From: Xanthomonas campestris pv. campestris str. ATCC 33913 | Lineage (GTDB): Bacteria > Pseudomonadota > Gammaproteobacteria > Xanthomonadales > Xanthomonadaceae | Direction of reading: 5' to 3' | DNA length: 32,000 nucleotides | Assembly: GCF_000007145.1 (NCBI RefSeq) | Contig: NC_003902.1 | Span: 460,325 to 492,324 of the forward strand | Part shown: positions 4,860-17,720 of the stretch, piece by piece | Numbering within the stretch: the stretch's first letter is position 1 | How the letters are laid out: each line of letters begins with the position of its first letter | The notes under the pieces: model-generated | Seen by the model: the letters and a program-made list of their open reading frames with translations, nothing else | What the model was told of the DNA's origin: nothing | The model's database searches: none | Translations under genes and position numbers: made by a program

Positions 4860-4936
4860 GCGCTCGTAGCTCAGCCGGATAGAGTAGTGGCTTCCGAAGC
4901 CATTGGTCGGGGGTTCGAATCCCTCCGGGCGCACCA
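4860..4936 (+). tRNA. tRNA-Arg (anticodon CCG)
   Basis: I folded a 77-nt cloverleaf by hand. The acceptor is GCGCTCG/CGGGCGC, the D arm GCTC-AGCCGGATA-GAGT and the anticodon arm GTGGC-TTCCGAA-GCCAT (anticodon CCG). The variable loop is TGGTC, the T arm is GGGGG-TTCGAAT-CCCTC, and the CCA end is encoded. Confidence 0.93.
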
Positions 4937-4938
4937 GA
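4914..4938 (+). repeat. attL-like direct repeat (3' end of tRNA-Arg)
   Basis: TTCGAATCCCTCCGGGCGCACCAGA recurs at 17696-17720 as TCCGAATCCCTTCGGGCGCACCAGA (23/25 identical). Confidence 0.75.
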
Positions 4939-4971
4939 TGAACCCTCCGGGACATCCAAGAAAGTCCAAAA

Positions 4972-4995
4972 CCCCCGAGAAATCGGGGGTTTTTG
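4972..4995 (+). terminator. rho-independent terminator after the tRNA (island-borne)
   Basis: Stem CCCCCGA/TCGGGGG with loop GAAA, followed by TTTTTG. Confidence 0.7.
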
Positions 4996-5095
4996 TTGCC
5001 TGAGGTTTTCCTAGGTCCACCATGATCCATTGAAATCCAGGCTCGTAGGGGCATAGATGGGGGCACCAGCCCCCAGTGCGAAAGCGGATGCCCCC

Positions 5096-5492
5096 ATGCC
5101 CCTGAGTGACGCCGCAGTGCGTAACGCAACGCCCGCTGACAAGCCCGTGAGACTGTTCGACGGCGGCGGCTTGTATGTCGAGATCTCGCCGAAAGGCGCC
5201 AAGCTATGGCGATGGAAGTATCGCTTTGGCGGTAAGGAGAAGCGCTTGGCACTGGGGGTCTACCCAGAGGTCAGCCTGGCGGAGGTGCGAGCGCAGCATC
5301 TGGAAGCACGCAAAGTCCTCCGGTCCGGCATTGACCCAGGTGAGAAGAGGAGGGTCGACAGGCTGGTGCGCGTTGATCGGTCCCAGCTCAGCTTTGCAGC
5401 TGTCGCTGCAGAGCTCCTGGCCCTGCATGGCAAGAAGAATTCCGTCCTGACGATGAAGCGCAATGGCAGGATCGTCGAAAAGGACCTCAACC
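5096..5492 (+). pseudogene. P4-type tyrosine integrase, N-terminal arm-binding (DUF4102-like) fragment only
   Basis: MPLSDAAVRNATPADKPVRLFDGGGLYVEISPKGAKLWRWKYRFGGKEKRLALGVYPEVSLAEVRAQHLEARKVLRSGIDPGEKRR is the typical N-terminus of tRNA-associated island integrases. The reading frame is cut at 5492/5493 by the IS terminal repeat. No catalytic domain is present anywhere in the window. Confidence 0.85.
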
Positions 5493-6842
5493 CTGAGGTT
5501 TCCCCACATTTCCTCCTGGCAAATCAATCACTTGCGACGTAATTGCCTGGAAGAAAGTGCGCGCATGGCGCAATCTTCAAGGTGACTAAGCCAGAGAAGG
5601 TTGACGACCATGCGCGCCAGCGAAGTATTGCAGAAGTGCCTGCCCAACTCACTGTCCGGGATGCATGCGTTGCGCGAACGCGCGTTGCTGCATGCGGTCG
5701 AGGCGTTGTTGCACGGACGCAGGCTGACACTGATGGACATCGCACGTTCGTGGCCGAGCGCACTGCGGGTGCGCGCGCCGCTCAAGGCAGTTGATCGCCT
5801 GTTGAGTAATCGCAATTTGCAGGTCGAGCGATCAGTGATCGACCACGAGATGGCAGCACTGGCTGCTGCGCGGCGCGCAGCCGGTAATCGTCATCGACTG
5901 GAGCGATCTGAAGCCAGACAAATCGTGGTGTCTGCTGCGCGCAGCGGTGCCGGTGGGCGGCCGCACGCTTACCTTGCTGGACATGGTAGTGCCAGGAAAG
6001 CAGCAGGGATCGCCTGGTGCAGAAAGACGCTTCTTGCAACAACTGAGGGCACTGGTTCCGGACGATGTTCGCCCGATCCTGGTCACTGACGCCGGCTTCC
6101 GGACACCGTGGTTCCGCGCTGTATCGGCCATGGGCTGGTGTTGGGTTGGGCGACTGCGCGGGCGCACGCAAGTCAAGCCGCAGGACGTGCGGGATGAAGC
6201 AGATCAGTGGATCGACAGCCGGAAACTGCATGTGTTGGCGTCCAATCGTGCATGCGAGTTACCGCCGATGCAGGCCAATCGCAGCGATCCACTCGATTGC
6301 AGGTTGGTGATTTACGCCAAGGCACGGCAAGGGCGCAAACAGTGCAATCGCCGCTCACCCGCCAAAGTCTCGCGTGCGTCATCGAGTCTGAAGGCCGCAG
6401 CGCGCGAGCGCGAGCCTTGGCTCATCGTTGCATCCCCGCAGCTGCAGGCGCCCAGCGCAAAGCAGTTGGTCAATGTGTACGCACGACGGATGCAGATCGA
6501 GCTTGCATTTCGCGATCTGAAATCACATCGCTACGGCCAGGCGCTGGAAGACAGTTTGACCCGACGCGGCGAGCGACTGCAGATCCTGCTGCTGATCAAT
6601 ACGTTGGCTGCATTCGCCAGCTGGTTGGCGGGGCTGGGATGCGAAGCGACCGGTATCGCCCAGTGGCTGTCTCCTCGCAACAGCACACGCAAGCTTTACT
6701 CCACGCTACGCATCGGCCGAGAAGCGCTGGTCAGGCAGTGGCCGATGGAACCCGTCTCACGGGGATAGGGCGCTTGCGCGCACTGCCTGCGGCAGTACGC
6801 GGGCAGATGATGCTTACGGTGTAAAACGTGGGGATACCTTAG
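5493..6842 (+). mobile_element. IS4-family insertion sequence (IS10-like termini), 1350 bp
   Basis: The terminal inverted repeats are CTGAGGTTTCCCCACATTTCC (5493-5513) and the reverse complement of 6822-6842, CTAAGGTATCCCCACGTTTTA. They match at 16/21 positions (16 of the first 19). The element encloses a transposase with the IS4 YREK signature. Confidence 0.85.
5610..6768 (+). pseudogene. IS4-family DDE transposase, frameshifted
   Basis: The N-terminal part is in frame 3 (MRASEVLQKCLPNSLSGMHALRERALLHAVEALLHGRRLTL...RLLSNRNLQVERSVIDHEMA). The continuation is in frame 1 (HWLLRGAQPVIVIDWSDLKPDKSWCLLRAAVPVGGRTLTLLDMVVP...). The frame change lies between the frame-1 stop at 5836-5838 and about 5880. 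The Y-x2-R-x3-E-x6-K motif is YARRMQIELAFRDLK. IS4-family elements do not use programmed frameshifting. Confidence 0.8.
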
Positions 6843-7124
6843 TATCTGGACCGATTGAGGTACTTGTAACAGAGGGGTATCGGTGTGCGTGGCAGCACTG
6901 CATTCGGAAGCGGTATAGCTGTCGCGTTTCGCACGCACCTGGAGCGTGTCCAATGTCCAGCTGTTGAATGCCGGCTCGGAAGTTTGGGGTGATGCAGGAT
7001 CTTGTGCTGACACTGCGTCCTGGTTGAGCGAAGGCGCGGCGAGCAGTGCGGGCGAAGCGAGAGCAGCCGCAAGCGCGAACGCCAGGCGGGAGGGAGCGGA
7101 CGGTGTGGCCCTGGAGGGATGCAT
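6843..7124 (-). pseudogene. TonB-dependent siderophore-type receptor, N-terminal fragment (signal peptide plus start of plug)
   Basis: The minus-strand ATG is at 7124. The fragment reads MHPSRATPSAPSRLAFALAAALASPALLAAPSLNQD...TLDTLQVRAKRDSYTASECSAATHTDTPLLQVPQSVQI. The frame runs straight into the IS terminal repeat at 6842. Confidence 0.75.
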
Positions 7125-7168
7125 GGAAACTCCAACAATGAGCGGGAAGGTCGAGATGTGACTGGCCA

Positions 7169-9304
7169 TCAGAAACGATGGTCCACGGTGAACTCGACGC
7201 GCCTGTCGGCACCCCGCAGCCACTGGGTATCGGTGTAATAAGCCGTTTCGTAGAACGTCTTGTCGAAGGCATTGAAGACGCGGGCGGTCAGTCGGGTGGC
7301 TGGGCGGGCCTGCCAGGAGACCGTGACATCCGTGGTGGCATAGCCCGGAAGTTGCAACGTATTGGCAGTGTCCGCATAGCGCTTTCCGACATACCGAACA
7401 CCCGTGGCGACCGTCCAGTCTGTAGCCACCTGCCAGCTCACCCACGCATTGGCCAAGCGCTCGGCGACGTTGGGCGGCACGTTGCCATCCCGAGAGACCG
7501 CGATGACCGGCGAACCAGTGGTCTCCAGAAAATCTTCGAACTCTGCCTTCAGCACGGTGGCGTTGAGATCCAGCGACCATGCCGGCGCGAAGACCCATGC
7601 CAAGGACGCCTCCACCCCCTTGGACGTTTGTGCGCCCACCTGGACACGTCGGTCCGGGTTCAAGGGGTCGCGGCTAAGCAAACCGGTCTTGCGAATGCGA
7701 TAGGCAGCCAAGGTCCACTCGCCGCCATCAAAGCCCTGTTTGAAGCCAACTTCCACCTGCTTGCCTCTGGATAGATCAAATGCCCCGTTGTTCGGACTGA
7801 TCATTAGCAGACCACTGATCGGGTCAGACGCTTGAGAGAACTGGGCGTAAAGCGTGGACGTTGGCCGGAGTGCAAACACCGTTCCGGTACGCCAGCCGGT
7901 ATTTGAGTAAGTCTTTGAGAACGTCCGCTGCCCGCTGATCAGGTCGGTGCGCTGAACAATGGCACGGTCATGGCGGAGGCCTGCCAAGATGGACCAGCGG
8001 TCGGTCAGCGCCAAACGGTCTTCAAGGAAGAGCGAGTATTGCTCGGCGCTGTTGCGATACCGGGGGATATTCGGCGCGTCGCTAATGAACCGGCCCGGCA
8101 CCGGATTGAACAGGTCCACCGGCCCGGAACTTCCCGAGTAGGTGTTATTGGTGTGCTTGAAGTGGGCTCGGTTGGCATCTACGCCAACGGCAAAGGTGTT
8201 GTCCATGTGGCCAAGACCACCCCGCAACCGCAGCGTGGAGGTCAGACCGGTCTGGTCCTGGTTGTGCGTGATCTGCGTGTTGTCGGAGCGGTCGATCAGC
8301 CCGGTTGTCGCGTTATAGACGTAGGCCTCGGCATTGCGCCAATCGCGCTGGCTGTCGACCTGGTAAAGGCGCGTGCGCCATTCAACCGTATTGTTGGGCG
8401 TCCACACCGCGTCGAGCTGGCTCCAACGGTCTCGGAACCGGATGACGCTGTCAGAGACGTTGTAGTTTTCGTGGCGCAACGCATTCAGCTGTTGGCCGTC
8501 CACCAATGGCGTGCCGAAGTAACGCATGGGGCGTTGATAGCCTTCTGCATGCGTCAGTGTGAATTGCAGGTCCGGCCGCGCTTGCCAGAGCAATGCGCCC
8601 GAGAAGGTGGCATCACCGTTGTAGCCACGATCCACCCAGCCGCTACTGTAATTGCCACTGACATCCAGCCGGTAGGCGAGGTTGGAGCTCAACGCGCCCC
8701 CGCTGCCGACCCCCAGTCGTGCCGTGTCCTGGCTGCCCACGGTAGCTCGAAGCTCGTTTTCCACCGGGCCAAAGTGAGGCTTCTTGGGCACGATGTTGAC
8801 TACGCCCCCGATCGCGCCGTCGCCATAGATGACGGAGGCCGGGCCACGCAACACTTCGATGCGTTCGATCGACCACGTGTCAAAAGGGAACGTGACTCCC
8901 ACGCCGCCGTACTGTCGGATGCCGTCATACAGACGCATGACCGACGCACTGTCGGTAAAACCACGGCTGGATAGGGCACTCAGGCCATTGCCTGGATGAG
9001 GCATCGCGCTGATGGCACCGGCCCAGGTGATAGCATTGTTTAGGTTGGCATTGCCGCGTGCGTTCAGTTGCTCACGCAAGATAACGGTCAGGCTTGCAGG
9101 AGTATCGAGCACGCTCAGACCGAGTGCCGAACCGGTCGAACTGATGTCAGTCAATGTGCCTGCGCGATCGTCGACGACCCGGACCGTGTCGAGCGTTCGG
9201 GGCGCTGGGCCTTGTTGTGCCAAGACTCCAGTGGAATGCAGCAGGAATGGAACGAGAGCCAAGGCTAGGCGTCCCGGACGGAGGACCGAGGGAAAGGAAT
9301 GCAT
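7169..9304 (-). CDS. TonB-dependent receptor, siderophore/metallophore type
   Basis: I set the start at ATG 9304 (MHSFPSVLRPGRLALALVPFLLHSTGVLAQQ signal peptide). The TonB-box-like sequence is TLDTVRVV, and the plug motifs are SSRGF...RLYDGIR...IERIEVLRGPASVIYG. A long beta-barrel ends in the terminal aromatic residue (...FTVDHRF). Confidence 0.9.
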   Translation of the reverse strand: MHSFPSVLRPGRLALALVPFLLHSTGVLAQQGPAPRTLDTVRVVDDRAGTLTDISSTGSALGLSVLDTPASLTVILREQLNARGNANLNNAITWAGAISAMPHPGNGLSALSSRGFTDSASVMRLYDGIRQYGGVGVTFPFDTWSIERIEVLRGPASVIYGDGAIGGVVNIVPKKPHFGPVENELRATVGSQDTARLGVGSGGALSSNLAYRLDVSGNYSSGWVDRGYNGDATFSGALLWQARPDLQFTLTHAEGYQRPMRYFGTPLVDGQQLNALRHENYNVSDSVIRFRDRWSQLDAVWTPNNTVEWRTRLYQVDSQRDWRNAEAYVYNATTGLIDRSDNTQITHNQDQTGLTSTLRLRGGLGHMDNTFAVGVDANRAHFKHTNNTYSGSSGPVDLFNPVPGRFISDAPNIPRYRNSAEQYSLFLEDRLALTDRWSILAGLRHDRAIVQRTDLISGQRTFSKTYSNTGWRTGTVFALRPTSTLYAQFSQASDPISGLLMISPNNGAFDLSRGKQVEVGFKQGFDGGEWTLAAYRIRKTGLLSRDPLNPDRRVQVGAQTSKGVEASLAWVFAPAWSLDLNATVLKAEFEDFLETTGSPVIAVSRDGNVPPNVAERLANAWVSWQVATDWTVATGVRYVGKRYADTANTLQLPGYATTDVTVSWQARPATRLTARVFNAFDKTFYETAYYTDTQWLRGADRRVEFTVDHRF

Positions 9305-9360
9305 GGGTGGTTCCAGGTGGAATAGCGCCGTGGGCGCAAGCGGGCGTTGTTTGAGAACGA

Positions 9361-9765
9361 CTACGCCGCCATCGGAGGGCCACGTGGACGATGCGCGGTG
9401 CTGCTGGCGAACCGCGGGACATTCGACGCACAAACGTCACTGCCGGCTGAGGCATGAGTGGGAGCGGCACGCCTCCAGGTCCAGTCATGCGGGGTGAGAA
9501 GAAGCGCTGCCAGCAGGCAGTGCTCGCAAGCAGCGTCGTGGGGCAGGGCGTGCTTGCCTAATTGGATTTGCCCTTCGCGACTACCCAGGGCCAGCGTGGC
9601 CGGTTTGGTTGCCAGCTGGTGGCCCGTCTCGCACATGGCCTCCATGACCATCTGCTGCGGCAGCGATTCAACCCACCGGCTGACAACCGGCGCAACCACC
9701 AGCAGCAAGGCCGCCATGGCGGCCCAGCTGCGGATAGCGTGGGCAAGGAATCTTCGAAGAGCCAT
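9361..9765 (-). CDS. DUF2946-like small membrane protein (copy 1)
   Basis: The start is ATG 9765 (MALRRFLAHAIRSWAAMAALLLVVAPVVSR...). It has an N-terminal TM helix, the motif HDAACEHCLL and a C-terminal RGPP. This pattern is as I recall it for DUF2946 proteins that accompany TBDRs. It lies 56 nt upstream of the TBDR and 23 nt downstream of the SOD gene. Confidence 0.6.
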   Translation of the reverse strand: MALRRFLAHAIRSWAAMAALLLVVAPVVSRWVESLPQQMVMEAMCETGHQLATKPATLALGSREGQIQLGKHALPHDAACEHCLLAALLLTPHDWTWRRAAPTHASAGSDVCASNVPRFASSTAHRPRGPPMAA

Positions 9766-9788
9766 GGGCGTGGGCGAGGATTGGCCGG

Positions 9789-10493
9789 TCAGCGCTTGGC
9801 TGCAGCGCCAAAGCGGGCGTTGACCTCGGTCCAGTTGACCACCGACCACCACGCCTTGATGTAGTCGGCCCGCTTGTTTTGGTAATGCAGGTAATACGCG
9901 TGTTCCCACATATCCAGGGCCAGCAGTGGCGTGCCGCGGTCGGACACGACATCCATCAATGGGTTGTCCTGATTGGACGTGGTGGTGATCGCCAGTGAGC
10001 CGTCTGGTTTGACGATCAACCAGGCCCATCCCGAGCCGAAAATTTTTGTGGCCGCCTCGGAGAACTTGGTTTTGAAGGCCTCTTCGGAGCCGAACGACTG
10101 TGCCAGTTTTGCCTTGAGGGCCGGCGATATCGTTCCTCCCTGGCCTGCGGGTGCCATCAGCGTCCAGAACAGGCTGTGGTTGTAATGGCCGCCGGCATTG
10201 TTGCGGACCGCCGCGTCGTACAGAGAGATATGGGCCTGGATGTCTTCGACAGACGTGGTCGACAACGCTGGGTAGTCTTCGACCTTGTTGTTGAGGTTAT
10301 CGACGTAGGCCTTGTGATGGCGTGCGTGATGGATCTCCATCGTTTGCGTGTCGATGGCCGGTTCCAATGCATTGGTCGCGTAGGGCAGCGCCGGTAGCGA
10401 GAAGGCGACTTTAGGTGCGTCGGCTGCGACTGCAATATTTGAAAGTGCCAGCAGGGCGCTGAGGCCTAACGCTTTAATGGATCGGCAATTCAT
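9789..10493 (-). CDS. Fe/Mn-family superoxide dismutase, SodA (Mn)-type signatures, with N-terminal Sec-type signal peptide
   Basis: The start is ATG 10493, with GGAG about 11 nt upstream. The signal peptide is MNCRSIKALGLSALLALSNIAVA, followed by ADAPKV. The mature part aligns by eye with E. coli SodA from its first residues: FSLPALPYATNALEP, MEIHHARHH, NNAGGHYNHSLFW, TSNQDNPL, LDMWEHAYYLHYQNKRADYIKAWWSVVNW. Confidence 0.92.
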   Translation of the reverse strand: MNCRSIKALGLSALLALSNIAVAADAPKVAFSLPALPYATNALEPAIDTQTMEIHHARHHKAYVDNLNNKVEDYPALSTTSVEDIQAHISLYDAAVRNNAGGHYNHSLFWTLMAPAGQGGTISPALKAKLAQSFGSEEAFKTKFSEAATKIFGSGWAWLIVKPDGSLAITTTSNQDNPLMDVVSDRGTPLLALDMWEHAYYLHYQNKRADYIKAWWSVVNWTEVNARFGAAAKR

Positions 10494-10977
10494 GGTGTTT
10501 TGCTCCGATTTCAAGAAGGACGAACAGGGTGCTAGCAGGCGTTTGGCATGAAAGCACAAGCGCACGGCGGACTGTGTCGGTCCGTTGGAGTCAGGAACTC
10601 TGGTCCTCAATTAAGAGCATCTAACAAAACTCCTGCGCAGCCGCCAGGCGAGCGCGGCCGGTGCTCGGAATCCTCATGTACCACTCGTACACTGCGGTTC
10701 CTAGGCTCCTTCCGCGCCCACCTGACGGCTGTTCGCTATGTTTTGTCAGCCGCTCTAAATCGTAAGGACTGCAGTGCACATGCACTTGCACGCGTCAACC
10801 TCACAACGTGCGACGACGCTTCGCCCTTGCTCGCGCAGGAGCAAATCGTTCAAACCGGGCACTCGACGGCTCAGTCTCGTCCTAGCAGATCCGCTACACC
10901 TCAACTTGGCAGCCATACAAGCCAATAGCCGCCAGCCCAAAGCAAAGACGGAAAAGATGCCGCACCGGAACGTTGTG

Positions 10978-11466
10978 TCAGGCGAGAACGACGGAAGGGG
11001 GGCCGCGGGCACCCAAGGTGCTTGAGAGCAGCGATAGGCGCGTATTAGCGAGCCTTGCTAATCGCCCGAAGCTGCCAGGGTAGCCAGTGAGGAGCAGTAG
11101 CACTGCAATCAACAGACTGATCAAACGGGCAGCAATCACGCAGTAATCACAGTCGACGCCCATGTCATGCTCGGCATGTGGGCCGGGCATTGGGCGTGCA
11201 TTTGCCGTCTCATCGTCTGCGTCGTGATGGGGATAGACGTTGGATGAAATTGAAGCCGTCTCCAGCACGTCTACCGCATCGTGGTGATGCTGGTGGCGAG
11301 GCGTCTGCTTAAAACGCGAGCCATGCTGATGCACTACGTTGAGCGCTGAGGAGGCCGATGCTGCGGACTGCTTCAGGGCGCGACTTACCAACGGCGCAAT
11401 GAGCATCAAGAGAATGGCGAGCCATGCGCAGGCAAGCAACCAGTGGTGGCGTCGTGAACGGTGCAC
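10978..11466 (-). CDS. DUF2946-like small membrane protein, His-rich (copy 2)
   Basis: The 162-aa protein has an N-terminal TM helix (WLLACAWLAILLMLIAPLVSR). Its His/Asp-rich segment is HQHGSRFKQTPRHQHHHD...YPHHDADDE...HAEHD. It also has CDYC, a second hydrophobic segment and a C-terminal RGPP. The architecture matches 9361-9765. Confidence 0.6.
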   Translation of the reverse strand: MHRSRRHHWLLACAWLAILLMLIAPLVSRALKQSAASASSALNVVHQHGSRFKQTPRHQHHHDAVDVLETASISSNVYPHHDADDETANARPMPGPHAEHDMGVDCDYCVIAARLISLLIAVLLLLTGYPGSFGRLARLANTRLSLLSSTLGARGPPSVVLA

Positions 11467-12167
11467 ATTCCGATTCTAATGGAAGCGGCCGACGAATGGT
11501 CTGTGGGCCAAGATCGTCGAAGGGCTGCGACAAAGTGTCGCAATGTGTGTTGGAGCAACGCCTGCCGCAAGGTCTGTCTGCCTTTCGCAAAGGTTTCAGG
11601 TAGCGAATACGCCAATGCCACATGCTCCATGCGCCGAGTAACCCACGGACGAGGGCGCGATGGTGAGCGCGTGTGTTGCTAGGCTTCGCTCACCGAGCCT
11701 CTGCTCGACACGTAGCATGTAGCCAACCAGTGTTTGGCGTAGTCGTACGCGGCGTTTCGGTCAGTGAAGGCAACACCGGATATGGATTGACGATGAAGTG
11801 TGATGCCGCCGGGCTTGGAAATAGGAGTTCGGGTAGGAATTTACCGTCAGCCGGTGAGAAGTGCGCCGTTAGCAGATAATCGCCCACGTGACGAGTTGCG
11901 GTAACGCCCAAGAGCATTTTTCCTTGATGGTGCCCAGCACCGTTGGTTGTTCGAAACATCACAAAAAAAGCCGCAGCCAGGCGCTGCTTGGTGGCGGATG
12001 ATCATGGACGACAAGAGTCCAACAGGCAGTCGGTGTTAGGCGAGCTGGACTTTAGGTATTTCCCTCAGCAGCAGCGCCGGGAGAGGCGGTTGATCCGTCC
12101 CCAATATGAGGAGCGCACGTTTGCTCTCGCCGACTATTTCCAGTCGCCACTCGAAATACTGAAACAA

Positions 12168-12186
12168 ATTGTTACTATGTAACAAT
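12168..12186. promoter_or_regulatory. perfect 19-bp palindrome, candidate Fur-family (Zur-like) operator
   Basis: ATTGTTAC-TAT-GTAACAAT lies in an A/T-rich context, 22 nt upstream of the TBDR ATG at 12208. Its core TGTTA-N5-TAACA has the same spacing as the gamma-proteobacterial Zur consensus GAAATGTTATANTATAACATTTC (recalled from memory). Confidence 0.45.
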
Positions 12187-12207
12187 AATTCTTGATGGGG
12201 AGTGTGC

Positions 12208-14823
12208 ATGTTGCGTAGTCGAACTCTTGCGGTGACGGGAATGCTGTCAACGAGTCTTGCAGTGGCACTGCCAGCCTTCGCTGAAGATCGGGAAGCGAAC
12301 TCGTCTACGCTGGTAGACAAGGAATTCGAGGTCATTACGGTGGGTAGCCGCTTCGGCGGTCGCTCGATGCTGCAGTCGCCAACGCCAGTGGACCTGATTA
12401 CCAGAGAGGAGATGGAGCGCAACGGGCGCGTCGATCTGCTGCAGATGCTCAAGGTCGAAGTGCCCAGCTTCAACATCCCGCGCCCGATTGCATCGGGTGC
12501 CGGCGACTACCTCATGCCGCCGTCTTTACGGGGCCTGGGGCCGGGTGAGGTGCTGGTGCTGATCAATGGCAAGCGTCGCCACACGTCGGCAGATCTCAAC
12601 TCAAGCAATGGTGTTGGACGCGGCGATATTTCGATCGACTTCAACGCCATCCCGTCCCTGGCCTTATCGCGCGTGGAAGTCCTGCGCGATGGCGCAGCGG
12701 CGCAATATGGGTCCGATGCAATCTCCGGCGTCATCAACCTCACCTTGGACCGCTCGCTGGAGACCGTGGCGCACGCCACTTACCTTGCTACCAGCAAGGG
12801 CGACGGTCAAACGCATGAGGTGGCCGCAGCGACGGGATTCCCCATCGGCAGGGAAGGCGTCGTGCGGCTCACTGCGGCCGTGCAAGACATCGCAGCCAGC
12901 AACCGGGCGCGTCCCGACACTCGGCAACAGTATTTCGGCGCCAACGCTGCTGGTGCGCCGGTGATGCCCTCCGGCAACTATGGCTCCGGGACAGGGCTGA
13001 CCGCGCCCAATGGCAGGCTTGATCCCCTCGAAGCCGGTTTTGACCGGGACGTGTTCTTCCAGGGCACCCAGCCAAGCACCAATCGGCAGCTGTTCTACAA
13101 CTTAGTGACGCCCCTGTCTGATGCGGTGGAGTTCTACTCCTTCGGCGGCCACAGCCGCCTGGATGGGGATATCACTTACTTCTTCCGGCGTGCGGGTCAG
13201 GACGAGACGGTACGTGCCATCTATCCGGATGGCTACAGCCCGATGCTGGATACACGCATCGACAACACATCGGTTGCGCTGGGTCTGCGAGGCCATGCGC
13301 TTGCAGGATTCGGTTGGGACCTATCCACGGTCTACGGGCGCAATACGCAGGACCTGTTTTACGCCAATAGCGTCAATGTCTCGCTCGGCGCCGGTTCGCC
13401 AACACGTTTCTATCGCAGCGGCGCCGACTTTGATCAATGGACAACCAATCTCGATCTGAATCGAGAGCTCGCCCTGGGCAGCTTCAGCCCACTGCGCTTG
13501 GCATTAGGCGCAGAGCATCGCTACGAGCAGTACCGGCTGTTGTCCGGCGCCGAGGCTGGCTACATTAACGGGGGCGTGCCCATCCTGGACGGGCCCAACG
13601 CGGGAAGGCCTGCGATTCCCGGCTCACAGCCGGGCCCAAGCAATGGCCCGGACGACAACGCGCTGCTGGACCGGAACAGTCAGGCGATCTACGTGGAAGT
13701 CGAGCAATCGCCTAGCGACCGCCTGCTGCTGAGCGCTGCCGCCCGCCATGAGCGCTACTCCGATTTCGGCAATACGACGAACGTCAAAATCGCGAGTCGT
13801 TTTCAGCTGAGCGAACAATGGGCGCTACGGGGCTCGTACAACACTGGCTTCCGTGCTCCAGCGCTGGCGCAGTCTGGTTACAACGCGTCCAATACGTTGA
13901 TTCTCAATGGGGCGCAGGCGATCGTGCGTGTTGCCGCAGTGGGAACCGAGGCGGCGCAGCTGGCCGGGGCGACCGATCTCAAGCCTGAAACGTCGAACAA
14001 CATTTCGCTTGGCACGGTATTTCAGGAAGGCAACTGGTCAGCCTCACTTGATGCTTATCAGATCAAGGTCCGCGACCGCATTGCGATTTCCTCGACGTTC
14101 CAGGACCCGCACCTGACCAACTACCTTGCGGCCAATGGACAGTCGGGATTCGCGGCGATTTCGTTTTTGACCAACGCTGTGGACACCGTCACGCGTGGCA
14201 TGGATCTGGTCATCAATTATCGGCGACAATTTGAACTTGGCGGAGCACTGACCGGCACCTTTGCTGGCAATTACAACACCACTGATTTTGATCGGATTGC
14301 TGGCACGCCTGCACCAATTGCTGCGCTGGGCATCACCACGCCGCTGTTCGACCTGACCCAGCAGTTGCGGTACTCAGACAGTCAGCCTCGCGACAAGCTG
14401 ATGCTCAACCTGAACTATACGCATGGCCGCTTCTCGGCAAACCTGACAAACACCCGCTATGGCCAAGTCTCCAGCGTGGCCCTGACTGGCAAGAACGCAG
14501 CGCAGGTTGCAGTGCTCACGCCGGGCTACGACACGCGCTTGGTGCCAGCCTCGGCCACCACCTACGACATCATCCAGACCTTTTCGCCAAAGATCATCAC
14601 CGATCTGGAACTCTCAGCACAGGTGACGCCGGCCCTGCGTGTGAGCATCGGGGCGCAGAACCTGCTTGATGTGTATCCGGACGAGAATATCGCGTCCACT
14701 GCGGCCAGTGTTGCAGTGGGGACCAATGGCTCGGACAACGCAGGCACGCATCCGTATAACGCCACATCGCCGTTCGGCTTTACGGGTCGTGCGTTATTTA
14801 TGCGCGCCGGTCTTACGTTTTAA
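12208..14823 (+). CDS. TonB-dependent receptor (non-siderophore/oligomer type plug)
   Basis: I chose ATG 12208 because GGGGAG lies 5-6 nt upstream. The signal peptide is MLRSRTLAVTGMLSTSLAVALPAFA, followed by EDRE. The TonB-box-like sequence is FEVITVG. The plug reads LRGLGPGEVLVLINGKRR...VEVLRDGAAAQYGSDAISGVINL, and the C-terminus is ...RAGLTF. Confidence 0.9.
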   Translation: MLRSRTLAVTGMLSTSLAVALPAFAEDREANSSTLVDKEFEVITVGSRFGGRSMLQSPTPVDLITREEMERNGRVDLLQMLKVEVPSFNIPRPIASGAGDYLMPPSLRGLGPGEVLVLINGKRRHTSADLNSSNGVGRGDISIDFNAIPSLALSRVEVLRDGAAAQYGSDAISGVINLTLDRSLETVAHATYLATSKGDGQTHEVAAATGFPIGREGVVRLTAAVQDIAASNRARPDTRQQYFGANAAGAPVMPSGNYGSGTGLTAPNGRLDPLEAGFDRDVFFQGTQPSTNRQLFYNLVTPLSDAVEFYSFGGHSRLDGDITYFFRRAGQDETVRAIYPDGYSPMLDTRIDNTSVALGLRGHALAGFGWDLSTVYGRNTQDLFYANSVNVSLGAGSPTRFYRSGADFDQWTTNLDLNRELALGSFSPLRLALGAEHRYEQYRLLSGAEAGYINGGVPILDGPNAGRPAIPGSQPGPSNGPDDNALLDRNSQAIYVEVEQSPSDRLLLSAAARHERYSDFGNTTNVKIASRFQLSEQWALRGSYNTGFRAPALAQSGYNASNTLILNGAQAIVRVAAVGTEAAQLAGATDLKPETSNNISLGTVFQEGNWSASLDAYQIKVRDRIAISSTFQDPHLTNYLAANGQSGFAAISFLTNAVDTVTRGMDLVINYRRQFELGGALTGTFAGNYNTTDFDRIAGTPAPIAALGITTPLFDLTQQLRYSDSQPRDKLMLNLNYTHGRFSANLTNTRYGQVSSVALTGKNAAQVAVLTPGYDTRLVPASATTYDIIQTFSPKIITDLELSAQVTPALRVSIGAQNLLDVYPDENIASTAASVAVGTNGSDNAGTHPYNATSPFGFTGRALFMRAGLTF

Positions 14824-14873
14824 GCACACGACGACGATGCTTGAAGCTCCACACCTGACAGAGGACGACTTGA

Positions 14874-16169
14874 ATGGGCAATCGCAGAGGATTTTTGAAG
14901 ATGTCCGCTTCGCTGGCTGCCGCGCCCCTGATTCCTGAGTCGTCTGCTGTGAGCAATGAACTAGACATTCCTGTTTCCAACAAACGCCCGCATGAGCTTG
15001 CACGCGACGAAGCCCACTGGCGCGCGGTAGGTAGACTCTATTCAATCCAAGAGGAAATCATCAACCTTGAGCACGGCTATTGGGGACAGATGTCCATCCC
15101 AGTAGAGCAGGCGTTGGCTCGCCACACGCACAGAGTCAATCGCGAATTGTCGTGGTATGCACGCCGTGAGTACGATCGCGATTTTCTGAAAGCGCGGGCG
15201 GCAGTTGCCGATGCTCTCGGTGTCAGCGTCGAGGAGCTGATGCTCACCCGCAACGCGACTGAGTCGTTCGTCAATCTGATCACCCAGTATGACGAATTGA
15301 GTTCCGGTAACGCGATCCTGTGGGCAGATGCCGACTACCCCGAGTTCAAGCGCATGATGTCCTGGCTCGCAGAGTCGCGGCAGGTAAGGGGAACGATGCT
15401 GAGTCTCCCGGCTGCGGGAACCGATGAGGATTACATAAGGATCTATCGAGAAGCCTTTGATGCGCTTCCGGATCTCAAGCTGATGTTGCTTACTCATGTC
15501 AGCAATCAACACGGTCTAGTGCTGCCAGTGCGAGAGATCGCGGCTATTGCCAAGTGCCGCGGCATCCACGTCATTTGCGATTGCGCACAATCCTGGGGGT
15601 TGCTCGACTTCACCCTTGACGACTTGAACGTTGACTGGGCTGTCTTCAATCTCCACAAGTGGATCGGCTCGCCGGTAGGTGTCGGGGCCCTTTACATGCG
15701 GCACGGAACACTGGTGCCTGTGAGGCCATTTCCAGGAGAGGACAGCAGTGATACGGATGTGGCCAATCGCGTGCACTTGGCAACATCTGACTTCGCTTCA
15801 TTTCTTACTGTGCCTGATGCTCTCGCTTTTCACCGCGCTATTGGCGGCGCAAATAAACAAGCGCGGCTGAACTACCTCCGCGAAGCATGGGTCGCCAGCC
15901 TTGAAGGGTCGTCGGCGGTTGAGGTATTAGGCGCGACCGGATCTAAAAACGCATCGGGAATGGGGGCATTCCGCCTGCGCGGACAGACGTCGAAGGTGCA
16001 AGTGAGTGCACTCCAGACTCGCCTTGAGACAGAATTCCGCATCTTTACAGTGGTTCGAAACGATCTTGCTAGCGGAGCCTGTATCCGGGTAACTCCACAG
16101 GTATTTACTCCGCTTGAGCATGTGCAGGCGCTTGCTGACGCGATCGTTGAGATTTCGGTTACCGGCTAA
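14874..16169 (+). CDS. class-V aminotransferase-fold PLP-dependent enzyme with twin-arginine (Tat) signal
   Basis: The N-terminus MGNRRGFLKMSASLAAAPLIP matches the Tat consensus S/T-R-R-x-F-L-K almost perfectly. The class-V fold is supported by the PLP-lysine context VFNLHKWIGSPVGVG and by overall similarity to isopenicillin-N-epimerase/cysteine-desulfurase-like proteins. GAGGA lies 8 nt upstream, and the TBDR stop is 50 nt away. Confidence 0.85.
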   Translation: MGNRRGFLKMSASLAAAPLIPESSAVSNELDIPVSNKRPHELARDEAHWRAVGRLYSIQEEIINLEHGYWGQMSIPVEQALARHTHRVNRELSWYARREYDRDFLKARAAVADALGVSVEELMLTRNATESFVNLITQYDELSSGNAILWADADYPEFKRMMSWLAESRQVRGTMLSLPAAGTDEDYIRIYREAFDALPDLKLMLLTHVSNQHGLVLPVREIAAIAKCRGIHVICDCAQSWGLLDFTLDDLNVDWAVFNLHKWIGSPVGVGALYMRHGTLVPVRPFPGEDSSDTDVANRVHLATSDFASFLTVPDALAFHRAIGGANKQARLNYLREAWVASLEGSSAVEVLGATGSKNASGMGAFRLRGQTSKVQVSALQTRLETEFRIFTVVRNDLASGACIRVTPQVFTPLEHVQALADAIVEISVTG

Positions 16170-16327
16170 GTGAAGCCGGCTTGACCGAATTTGCTGAAAT
16201 GTGTCCGACAGCTGGCCTCTGCTCAGCAATGTCCGCTTGGTAAGGGCGGCACCGTGGGCCGACGTCCCCCCAATTTTGAGTAGCGCCTCAGTTTGGAGTC
16301 CAATTCCCTACCCCGAGGAGATTGGAC

Positions 16328-16591
16328 GTGAAGAAACGTTTTACTGACGAGCAGGTCATCGGCTTTCTGCGCGAAGCCGAAAGCGGCGTCGCCATCAAGG
16401 ACCTGTGCCGGCGGCATGGCTTCAGCGAGGCCTCGTACTACCTGTGGCGCAGCAAGTTCGGTGGGATGAGCGTGCCCGATGCCAAGCGGCTCAAGGACCT
16501 CGAGTCCGAGAACGCGCGGCTGAAGAAGTTGCTGGCCGAGCAGTTGTTCGAGAACGACCTGATCAAGGATGCACTGCGAAAAAAGTGGTGA
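16328..16591 (+). CDS. IS3-family transposase OrfA (HTH)
   Basis: (M)KKRFTDEQVIGFLREAESGVAIKDLCRRHGFSEASYYLWRSKFGGMSVPDAKRLKDLESENARLKKLLAEQ is IS407-like. I prefer the GTG 16328 start because GAGGAG lies 7 nt upstream. The ORF track starts at TTG 16322. Confidence 0.85.
   Translation: MKKRFTDEQVIGFLREAESGVAIKDLCRRHGFSEASYYLWRSKFGGMSVPDAKRLKDLESENARLKKLLAEQLFENDLIKDALRKKW
16579..16585 (+). promoter_or_regulatory. programmed -1 ribosomal frameshift heptamer A AAA AAG
   Basis: In the orfA zero frame the sequence is CGA AAA AAG TGG TGA. The heptamer AAAAAAG lies two codons before the orfA stop, which is the classic IS3-family arrangement. Confidence 0.8.
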
Positions 16592-17430
16592 GCGCACCGG
16601 CGCGTCGGACGCTGGTGCGCGAATGGATCGGGCGTGGTGCCAGCGAGCGTCGTGCGTTGGCAGTGATCGGCATGAGCGCCAGTGCACTGCGGTATTGCCC
16701 GCGCGAAGATCGCAATGGCGAACTGCGCGAACGCATCTGTGCGTTGGCACATCGCCATCGCCGCTATGGCGTGGGAATGATCTATCTCAAATTGCGGCAA
16801 GAAGGGCGCATCGTGAACTACAAGCGTGTGGAACGGTTGTACCGCGAGCAGCAGCTGCAAGTGCGCCGCCGCAAGCGCAAGAAGGTCCCAATAGGCGAGC
16901 GTCAACCGCTGCTGCGGCCATCGCAGGCCAACCAGGTGTGGTCGATGGACTTTGTGTTCGACCGCACCGCCGAAGGCCGGGTGATCAAGTGTCTGGTGAT
17001 CGTGGACGATGCAACCCACGAAGTGGTCGCCATCGAGGTGGAGCGCGCGATCTCCGGGCACGGGGTGACGCGCGTGCTGGACCGACTGGCGCACAGTCGC
17101 GGTTTGCCGAAGGTGATCCGCACTGACAACGGCAAGGAGTTTTGCGGTAAGGCGATGGTCGCCTGGGCGCATGCCCGTAATGTGCAACTACTGCTCATCC
17201 AGCCAGGCAAACCGAACCAGAACGCCTACGTCGAATCCTTCAACGGCCGACTGCGCGACGAATGCCTCAACGAGCACTGGTTCCCGACGTTACTGCACGC
17301 GCGCACCGAAATCGAACGCTGGCGACGCGAATACCACGAGGACCGACCCAAGAAAGCAATCGGCGGCATGACGCCGGCTGCGTATGCCCAACATCTGGCA
17401 AACACCGATATCATCAACCCCGGACTCTAA
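16579..17430 (+). CDS. IS3-family transposase OrfB (DDE integrase domain), expressed as an OrfAB fusion by -1 frameshift
   Basis: The frame is -1 relative to orfA. After the slip it reads KKVVSAPARRTLVREWIG...WSMDFVFD...IRTDNGKEF...NAYVESFNGRLRDECLN, a typical rve/DDE domain. Confidence 0.85.
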   Translation, partial: KKVVSAPARRTLVREWIGRGASERRALAVIGMSASALRYCPREDRNGELRERICALAHRHRRYGVGMIYLKLRQEGRIVNYKRVERLYREQQLQVRRRKRKKVPIGERQPLLRPSQANQVWSMDFVFDRTAEGRVIKCLVIVDDATHEVVAIEVERAISGHGVTRVLDRLAHSRGLPKVIRTDNGKEFCGKAMVAWAHARNVQLLLIQPGKPNQNAYVESFNGRLRDECLNEHWFPTLLHARTEIERWRREYHEDRPKKAIGGMTPAAYAQHLANTDIINPGL

Positions 17431-17499
17431 ACCAGGCCGCTACTCAGGGCGGGGGGACGTCGGGACGCAGCCGACGCGGAGCATCAGTCATTAGGGCTT

Positions 17500-17596
17500 C
17501 TGTCCATCCCTACCGCATCGGTGGCGCTGGCCTACATTCCATATCAGTGGTCTTCGTCTGTTCATCTATGGCTCATCTGTCCACTGCTGTCCATCC
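17500..17596 (+). repeat. cluster of four direct CTGT(C/T)CA repeats just inside attR
   Basis: The copies are CTGTCCATCC (17500), CTGTTCATC (17558), CTGTCCAC (17577) and CTGTCCATCC (17587). All are in the same orientation within 100 bp. Confidence 0.4.
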
Positions 17597-17695
17597 GCAC
17601 CCAATCGAGCCCCAAAACGTTGGGGGCATCCATGGGGGAATCGGTCCGCTACTAACTTGATTAAATCCATTTTAAACAAACGATTACGCGGAATG

Positions 17696-17720
17696 TCCGA
17701 ATCCCTTCGGGCGCACCAGA
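17696..17720 (+). repeat. attR-like direct repeat (copy of the tRNA-Arg 3' end)
   Basis: TCCGAATCCCTTCGGGCGCACCAGA compared with tRNA positions 4914-4938: two mismatches (4915/17697 and 4925/17707). Confidence 0.75.

Follow-up and report, generated by a model that had tools for sequence, protein, structure and literature searches.

A predicted periplasmic manganese-type superoxide dismutase carried on a tRNA-Arg genomic island of Xanthomonas campestris and flanked by CruR-type open reading frames

Because superoxide cannot pass through membranes, a separate dismutase is required in every compartment; textbooks place the Cu,Zn superoxide dismutase (SOD) in the periplasm and the iron and manganese enzymes in the cytoplasm. 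Escherichia coli SodA (PDB entries 1D5N and 1VEW) is a cytoplasmic, leaderless MnSOD. Predicted periplasmic MnSODs (pMnSOD/sodAp) have already been noted in Acinetobacter species (PMC8918354), mostly in species that lack sodC and in a few sodC-positive strains, and no link to copper uptake was reported for them. The present analysis concerns an Fe/Mn-family SOD gene with a predicted signal peptide in Xanthomonas campestris pv. campestris str. ATCC 33913, located in a 32,000-nucleotide stretch of contig NC_003902.1 (positions 460,325 to 492,324 of the forward strand) that is referred to below as the window and that supplies the numbering for all coordinates. Exported MnSODs are thus already known; what is new is the placement of a SOD inside CruR-type copper operons.

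The described system closest to the surroundings of this gene is that of CruR, an exported peptide that senses copper through a CXXC motif while still nascent and controls Rho-dependent termination (PMC9426467). In Bordetella, CruR exerts this control in front of the copper transporter CrtA/BfrG and of CrpH, a PepSY_TM protein that is a putative copper reductase of the periplasm, and cruR-crtA-crpH constitutes a copper-repressed copper-acquisition operon (PMC9426467, PMC12914433, PMC13038864). No SOD is mentioned in the accessible portions of these three papers or of their supplementary files, and a full-text literature search returned nothing relevant on a SOD combined with CruR-type copper operons. 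A switch from the Cu/Zn enzyme Sod1 to the Mn enzyme Sod3 within the same compartment under copper starvation is described for Candida albicans in the available part of PMC5198983. That switch is eukaryotic, cytosolic and under transcription-factor control, with no regulatory homology to the present locus, whereas the bacterial case is argued from gene context.

The X. campestris gene is defined by the following elements.

9789..10493, minus strand: coding sequence of the SOD precursor, stop codon included (open reading frame, ORF, and translation; 234 amino acids, Fe/Mn family, Mn-type)
10425..10493, minus strand: predicted Sec (signal peptidase I) signal peptide, SOD residues 1-23, cleavage between AVA and AD
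10503..10506, minus strand: GGAG, Shine-Dalgarno-like, 9 nucleotides (nt) 5' of the SOD ATG, read from the sequence

The translation begins with the leader MNCRSIKALGLSALLALSNIAVA and continues into the mature part as ADAPKVAFSLPALPY..., the start being the ATG at 10493 and the stop codon ending at 9789. A preliminary description made from the letters of the stretch had placed a SodA-type SOD here, with a GGAG ahead of the first ATG, all four metal-ligand contexts, the Mn-type discriminators and a domain start equivalent to the N-terminus of SodA. Each of these points was borne out, the coordinates being exact and the gene lying on the minus strand. Both Pfam domains are present in N-then-C order, Sod_Fe_N (PF00081) over residues 31-114 (E 4e-28, 98.1 bits, cut-off 27) and Sod_Fe_C (PF02777) over residues 125-227 (E 4e-41, 139.8 bits, cut-off 20.9). 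Alignment with E. coli SodA and SodB, using reference copies 100% identical to PDB 1D5N and 1ISA, places F31-S-L-P on SodA residues 2-5 and identifies the metal ligands as H55, H106, D194 and H198 (SodA His26, His81, Asp167 and His171) and the gateway residues as H59 and Y63 (SodA His30/Tyr34); ligands and gateway residues are invariant in the alignment (A1). The overall relationship to SodA is that of the same two-domain fold family, with 52% identity over the catalytic domain.

The positions that distinguish Mn-type from Fe-type enzymes are G101-G102, F109 and Q175-D176, equivalent to Gly76-Gly77, Phe84 and Gln146-Asp147 of E. coli SodA, the corresponding residues of E. coli SodB being A-Q, Y and A-G. 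The NCBIfam Mn-SOD model scores 232.6 bits against 186.5 bits for the Fe-SOD model, both under their equivalog cut-offs (363 and 348). A search of the PDB gave best matches that are all MnSODs, with E-values down to 2e-70, and the top 40 are MnSODs or Mn/Fe enzymes; the matched MnSOD chains begin to align at query residue 29-32. On these sequence markers the enzyme is assigned to the Mn type with good confidence. The ligands, the His-His/Tyr gateway and the GG and Q-D markers are thus common to both enzymes, and the difference from leaderless E. coli SodA lies in a predicted Sec-type signal of 23 residues plus approximately six residues ahead of the domain, and in a location on an island within a metal-uptake cluster.

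The leader was assessed by a heuristic calculation of its n-, h- and c-regions rather than by a SignalP run, together with its conservation across relatives. It consists of the n-region MNCRSIK, with a net charge of +2, the core ALGLSALLALSNIAV and an alanine before the cleavage point. The core comprises 15 uncharged residues, within the 7-15 required of a Sec signal, with a best ten-residue Kyte-Doolittle mean of 2.32, and small residues occupy positions -3 and -1 (AVA, followed by A), which agrees with the positive n-region, hydrophobic core and A-x-A motif read in the preliminary description. No twin arginine is present in the leader, R4 and K7 being its only basic residues, so a twin-arginine translocation (Tat) signal (S/T-R-R-x-F-L-K) was not recognized; nor was a lipobox (L-(A/S)-(G/A)-C), the sole cysteine lying in the n-region at residue 3. 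Between M1 and M52 the frame offers no ATG, GTG or TTG, and the conserved N-terminus of the domain therefore requires the leader to be translated. Upstream of M1 the frame remains open to a TTG at 10610, and that stretch is not conserved among relatives.

An N-terminal extension is present in all 120 of the best database relatives and was measurable in 119, the remaining sequence (P0080) having no LPxLPY motif and being omitted from the measurement. In these 119 the stretch ahead of LPxLPY has a median length of 33 residues and always contains a hydrophobic core together with one or more A-x-A-like sites. The length of the leader is constant at 32 residues in Xanthomonas, Stenotrophomonas and Pseudoxanthomonas while its sequence varies freely, as would be expected if the leader works as a signal peptide. 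DNA similarity to SOD orthologues ends at codons ~22-30, within or just past the leader-coding part. The proposal that this is an exported SodA-type enzyme is accordingly strengthened by the leaders of the best 120 relatives and by the lack of an alternative start codon.

Where homologs start, a check proposed at the outset, depends on their distance. Close relatives carry the leader, whereas among the matches listed a distant set of 80 genomic relatives (51-64% identity, no Xanthomonas) contains ~55 that begin MAF(T/E)LP directly, 16 with clear signal-like leaders and eight that are ambiguous. Since ~55 of the 80 are leaderless, the leader characterizes a clade and is not a product of faulty annotation. 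The earlier remark that exported Fe/Mn SODs are uncommon in proteobacteria holds in so far as they are a minority, yet they are not rare, being found in many Lysobacterales, Burkholderiales, Sphingomonadales, Caulobacterales and Moraxellaceae. The Moraxellaceae relative from Alkanindiges (P0099) has 59% identity to the window SOD. Compared with the Acinetobacter pMnSODs, which occur mostly where sodC is absent and for which no copper-uptake link was reported, the X. campestris enzyme coexists with a retained sodC and lies between CruR-type ORFs. Several Bacteroidota relatives (L015, L035, L048 and L061) carry Tat-like RRxFLK leaders on their MnSODs; Tat-like leaders in Bacteroidota and Sec-type leaders in proteobacteria would represent two export routes, and hence two metal-loading routes, for the same enzyme.

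The gene is carried on an island of ~12.8 kb (window 4860-17718) inserted at a tRNA-Arg(CCG) gene and marked by the following features.

4860..4936, plus strand: tRNA-Arg (CCG), left boundary of the island (ARAGORN, Rfam tRNA)
5057..5542, plus strand: truncated P4-type integrase, Arm DNA-binding domain only (Pfam Arm-DNA-bind_3, E 9e-26)
5947..6768, plus strand: insertion sequence (IS) transposase (DDE_Tnp_1) interrupting the integrase region (Pfam, E 3e-19)
16322..17430, plus strand: IS3-family element, an HTH_Tnp_1 ORF and an rve integrase-core ORF (Pfam)
17695..17718, plus strand: 24-nt direct repeat of the tRNA-Arg 3' end with two mismatches, right boundary of the island

A tRNA gene, an integrase, a repeat of the tRNA 3' end and a deviating composition are the attributes of a tRNA-associated island, and none of 100 shuffles of the window produced a second match to the 3'-end repeat. 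The preliminary description had found the SOD gene to be more A/T-rich than the host core and had proposed a foreign origin. The composition agrees, with 58.2% GC in the gene against 63.7% in the window and a GC fraction at third codon positions (GC3) of 0.74, within the range of 0.61-0.74 for island genes, against 0.83-0.90 for the ubiA, ubiB, mscK-like and sulfatase genes; low G+C content is a property of the block at ~4.9-17.7 kb and not of the SOD gene alone. Beyond composition, a foreign origin is supported by the tRNA-Arg, the P4-type integrase fragment, the two IS elements and the 24-nt repeat. The truncation of the integrase and the presence of IS elements make it probable that the island can no longer move.

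X. floridensis (L091) has an island at this tRNA-Arg site too, with identical neighbouring genes on either side and the tRNA-integrase junction shared at 88% nucleotide identity; it carries a version of the same cargo that differs in order and orientation, which implies IS-mediated rearrangement. The SOD module is found elsewhere in the chromosome in X. cucurbitae and X. oryzae, and X. citri is reported to possess four SOD homologues, all of them lacking a signal peptide (PMC6322740); this variable location and the X. citri complement indicate that the gene is accessory within the genus. The exact SOD sequence occurs on 526 contigs, the members of its cluster being named X. campestris pv. campestris or raphani, and it is annotated plainly as 'superoxide dismutase' in hundreds of public X. 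campestris genomes. The presence of sX9, a small RNA family specific to Xanthomonas, is in keeping with this host.

The explanation preferred here, to which a probability of roughly 0.72 is attached as a whole, is that the gene encodes a Sec-exported periplasmic Mn-type SOD that is cargo of the island and subject to copper control of the CruR kind. Its first part, comprising export by Sec, cleavage by signal peptidase, a periplasmic location, the Mn type and residence on an acquired island, is held with good confidence as a reading of the sequence. The precursor would cross the inner membrane by the Sec route and be cut by signal peptidase I after Ala23, leaving a soluble periplasmic enzyme of ~211 residues that would convert superoxide to O2 and H2O2 outside the cytoplasm. 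Since it would be exported unfolded, its metal would be taken up in the periplasm. Copper and zinc bind more tightly than manganese in the periplasm. A Sec-exported MnSOD in a major plant pathogen raises the question of how the correct metal is acquired by an enzyme that folds there, and also whether bacteria exchange one SOD isozyme of the periplasm for another as the supply of copper changes.

The second part of the explanation concerns the neighbours of the gene. On the minus strand the order is cruR_A, a 484-nt spacer, SOD, 23 nt, cruR_B, 56 nt and a TonB-dependent receptor (TBDR1).

10978..11466, minus strand: cruR_A, DUF2946/CruR-type small ORF (Pfam DUF2946, 38.3 bits, cut-off 23.7)
10494..10977, minus strand: spacer of 484 nt from cruR_A to SOD, presumed leader and Rho-termination region if CruR logic applies
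10676..10751, plus strand: full-length copy of the Xanthomonas small RNA sX9 (RF02228), antisense within the spacer between cruR_A and SOD (Rfam 91.2 bits, gathering score 44)
9361..9765, minus strand: cruR_B, DUF2946/CruR-type small ORF (Pfam DUF2946, 31.4 bits, cut-off 23.7)
7169..9304, minus strand: TBDR1, TonB-dependent receptor (Pfam Plug and TonB_dep_Rec_b-barrel), 56 nt after cruR_B

Both small ORFs have a hydrophobic N-terminus, a CXXC motif (CDYC at residues 106-109 of cruR_A, CEHC at 80-83 of cruR_B) and an RGPP motif (154-157 and 128-131, respectively) that lies 44 residues beyond CXXC and 3-5 residues from the C-terminus; cruR_B begins 23 nt past the SOD stop codon. These are the hallmarks of the CruR family, with RGPP instead of RAPP, the B. 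pertussis CruR having RAPP and a spacing of 45 residues (PMC9426467). The C-terminal part of cruR_A is conserved in three related contigs (L084, L085 and L087). The window thus shares with the Bordetella cruR-crtA(bfrG)-crpH operon a DUF2946 upstream ORF (uORF) with an export signal, the CXXC motif and the C-terminal R-x-P-P arrest motif, a long spacer and a TonB-dependent transporter, and it differs in having two CruR-type ORFs, no PepSY_TM gene and a SOD as the first downstream gene; the PepSY_TM gene is found in relatives of the window.

The arrangement recurs in related species. Gene contexts of close relatives were obtained from 12 exact-protein look-ups, and the block of SOD, cruR_B and receptor is colinear with its X. 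cucurbitae counterpart (76% nucleotide identity). The order DUF2946, (receptor), PepSY_TM, SOD, (receptor) is found in X. cucurbitae, L084, X. oryzae, Stenotrophomonas sp. PA-6-5C and X. floridensis, with a gap of 58-78 nt between PepSY_TM and SOD in four of these five relatives and overlapping called genes in X. oryzae (L085). TBDR1 shares 80% identity with the receptor behind SOD in X. cucurbitae (L082) and 33% with the one behind the CruR-type ORF in X. oryzae (L085). The X. cucurbitae orthologue of cruR_B (L082:8687-9136) lacks a gene call, and small DUF2946 ORFs appear to be under-annotated.

A more distant case is provided by Sphingobium (L009:1407-8148), in which an apparent operon consists of a DUF2946-like uORF, an exported SOD, MbnP, MbnH, PCuAC, Sco1 and a receptor. 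The uORF scores 25.4 bits and ends three residues beyond RGPP, with a single cysteine where CXXC would be expected, and the partner genes all belong to families listed for CruR operons. An exported MnSOD is connected here with genes for copper acquisition independently of the cases above. In Caulobacter, CC1775 (DUF2946), CC1776 (GntR), CC1777 (sodA) and CC1778 (receptor) form one co-regulated cluster (PMC4176598). CruR-like ORFs at the 80 distant SOD loci among the matches listed numbered none by a strict pattern and one, the Sphingobium locus, by a relaxed one; CruR-like uORFs were encountered beside exported SODs only, with none at the ~55 listed loci of cytoplasmic type.

The SOD is positioned as the first structural gene behind a CruR-type copper-sensing uORF, with cruR_B and the receptor following and perhaps co-transcribed. 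By analogy with Bordetella cruR-crtA-crpH, scarce copper would permit read-through into SOD and available copper would lead to a Rho-dependent stop, so that the enzyme could serve as a Cu/Zn-independent periplasmic dismutase when SodC cannot be metallated. Such co-regulation with copper acquisition, in which the SOD substitutes for SodC, is advanced tentatively, at somewhat less than even odds. The wider proposal, that exported MnSODs have entered a CruR-controlled copper-starvation response in Xanthomonas and Stenotrophomonas and independently in some Sphingomonadales and Caulobacter, is a possibility of the same order. In that response, read-through at low copper would co-express the TonB-dependent copper importer, the PepSY_TM reductase where present and the Sec-exported SOD, and synthesis of the SOD would be confined to conditions in which copper poses the smallest risk of mis-metallating a periplasmically folded enzyme. 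In relatives with an adjacent PepSY_TM haem reductase, the SOD could also clear superoxide arising from periplasmic metal reduction.

The position behind a CruR-type sensor offers a concrete regulatory hypothesis. If true, the locus would be a bacterial periplasmic counterpart of the switch from Cu/Zn to Mn/Fe SODs in fungi and plants, and SOD would be the first enzyme cargo of a CruR operon that does not itself handle copper. Xanthomonas faces both the host oxidative burst and copper bactericides, and a copper-repressed periplasmic SOD could affect fitness on treated and untreated plants.

Several observations weigh against this explanation in one or other of its parts. Export and cleavage are predicted from sequence and conservation, and the metal used is not reliably readable from sequence because cambialistic enzymes share the same motifs. 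TBDR1 types as a siderophore receptor (TIGR01783, 236.9 bits, cut-off 223.5) and not as an OprC copper receptor, and the window has lost the PepSY_TM gene. The spacer is long (484 nt), contains the antisense sX9 and is not C-rich overall, C exceeding G only in the final ~120 nt, so that the SOD may have its own promoter. When 9200-12300 was scanned, neither a sigma-70-like promoter nor a terminator came to light in this spacer or between SOD, cruR_B and TBDR1, a result that is uninformative on the true transcription start. The association with CruR-type ORFs is confined to some lineages and is missing from Pseudoxanthomonas, Luteimonas, Orrella, X. albilineans and a metagenome contig (L092), and receptors neighbour the SOD at only three of the 24 distant exported-SOD loci among the matches listed. 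In X. albilineans (L090:5652-8708) the SOD follows mntR-mntH, and Sphingomonadales copies lie in zinc-type contexts, one beside a receptor and an ABC-2 transporter (L017:2208-8720) and one beside CobW/COG0523 and a receptor (L049:1857-8630); copper is therefore not the sole metal linked to exported MnSODs. Finally, the accessible part of an X. campestris copper-stress RNA-seq study shows, of the SOD genes, only the cytoplasmic sodA (XCC2278) and sodC2 (XCC0191) (PMC10924375).

That part of the study describes the Cu,Zn-SOD gene sodC2 as copper-induced. It also describes sX9 as multi-copy in X. campestris, with several copies induced by copper stress (PMC10924375). The sX9 copy in the spacer is present in a near-identical metagenome contig (L081) as well. 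An Rfam scan upstream of SOD found no riboswitch, such as the Mn riboswitch, with only sX9 and tRNA matched.

In a rival reading the SOD is exported but its expression and role track manganese, iron or zinc, the CruR-type ORFs controlling only the receptor genes. Besides the mntR-mntH-SOD arrangement of X. albilineans, this reading can call on a DtxR-family gene ~3 kb from SOD in Luteimonas, ZnuK/ZnuGHI-like or CobW genes at Sphingomonadales loci, the alteration of the Caulobacter sodA cluster in a zur mutant (PMC4176598), a Zur-box-like palindrome on the same island as the SOD and the room for a separate promoter in the 484-nt spacer. However, no Fur box was matched at three or fewer mismatches in the whole window, and within the SOD spacer at most 10 of 19 positions agree; the Zur-like box lies ~700 nt from cruR_A in the opposite orientation; CruR-type ORFs are described as operon heads (PMC9426467); and related species place SOD between cruR and crpH-type genes with short gaps. 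Control by manganese, zinc or iron is therefore judged unlikely, although it is the serious regulatory alternative to copper. A census of 127 neighbours at the 24 distant exported-SOD loci (Pfam) identified no dominant family, and with receptors at three of the 24 the general statement that exported MnSODs usually lie in metal-uptake operons was rejected. Exported MnSODs are nevertheless found repeatedly in metal-limitation loci and not in copper loci alone.

Two further readings retain export but alter the final location of the enzyme. Anabaena SodA is membrane-anchored, and an uncleaved leader could likewise hold the X. campestris SOD at the outer face of the inner membrane, as has been proposed for cyanobacterial MnSODs. 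In favour of this, cyanobacterial relatives (for example P0082, P0085 and P0090) have N-terminal hydrophobic segments that are longer, at 25-40 residues. The core found here, at only ~15 residues, is too short for a stable transmembrane helix; it leads into a canonical A-V-A/A site whose +2 region is polar and acidic, an arrangement usual in Sec signals that are cleaved, making a membrane anchor improbable.

MnSOD1 of Sphingobacterium sp. T2 is said to have been purified as an extracellular enzyme. Its structures (5A9G, 6GSB and 6GSC) are the closest solved structures to the window SOD and its top PDB matches (E ~1e-70), and it oxidizes lignin, an extracellular polymer (PMC10795516). Together with the vascular plant-pathogenic habit of X. 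campestris and the detection of SOD in Xanthomonas extracellular fractions (PMC6322740), this relationship raises the question of whether the enzyme is secreted past the periplasm, for example by a type II system, and quenches the host oxidative burst or attacks lignin in the apoplast. Lignin oxidation by MnSOD1, however, proceeds through hydroxyl radical and requires two substitutions near the active site (PMC10795516), and the lignin-type residues Tyr27 and Ala31, as identified from the 6GSB and 6GSC mutant sequences, correspond to His56 and His60 in the window SOD, as in E. coli SodA. The Sphingobacterium-type signature, in which Tyr27 and Ala31 replace His27 and His31, is thus not found in the window SOD, and with histidine at both positions ordinary dismutase chemistry is expected. 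In addition, the Xanthomonas SOD that has so far been reported outside the cell, SodM, has no leader (PMC6322740), and the gene context is one of metal uptake rather than of secretion or cell-wall degradation, so that secretion beyond the periplasm appears very improbable.

A mis-called start would make the protein an ordinary cytoplasmic SodA that initiates further downstream, the hydrophobic stretch belonging to an untranslated leader. This is favoured by public records of 215 amino acids (MAVAADAPKV...) on 20 contigs and 213 on one, but is judged the least probable reading of all given that the 234-residue form occurs on 526 contigs, that the shortened calls (P0125 and P0134) need ATT or GTC starts without a Shine-Dalgarno sequence in a frame devoid of ATG, GTG or TTG between codon 1 and Met52, that the length and hydrophobic pattern of the leader are kept between species despite sequence drift, and that genuinely cytoplasmic relatives begin MAFxLP, four residues ahead of the motif. 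The truncated public records mask the signal peptide, since they start inside it, and would wrongly predict a cytoplasmic enzyme.

Divergent from cruR_A, the island carries a second unit of cargo.

12168-12186, plus strand: 19-nt perfect palindrome ATTGTTACTATGTAACAAT, 16 nt upstream of the second TonB-dependent receptor
12202..14823, plus strand: second TonB-dependent receptor (Pfam, NCBIfam)
14874..16169, plus strand: class-V aminotransferase with a Tat signal (Pfam, NCBIfam)

The aminotransferase is presumably a periplasmic pyridoxal-phosphate enzyme, given its Tat signal. It is weakly similar to the pyoverdine-tailoring enzyme PvdN (74 bits, cut-off 650) and is kept on the X. floridensis island at 71.5% nucleotide identity. 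The palindrome has a single occurrence in the window and did not turn up in any of 100 shuffles, and it closely resembles the Zur boxes of Caulobacter, such as ATTGTTATGATATAACATC, which suggests that the unit of receptor and aminotransferase is zinc-regulated.

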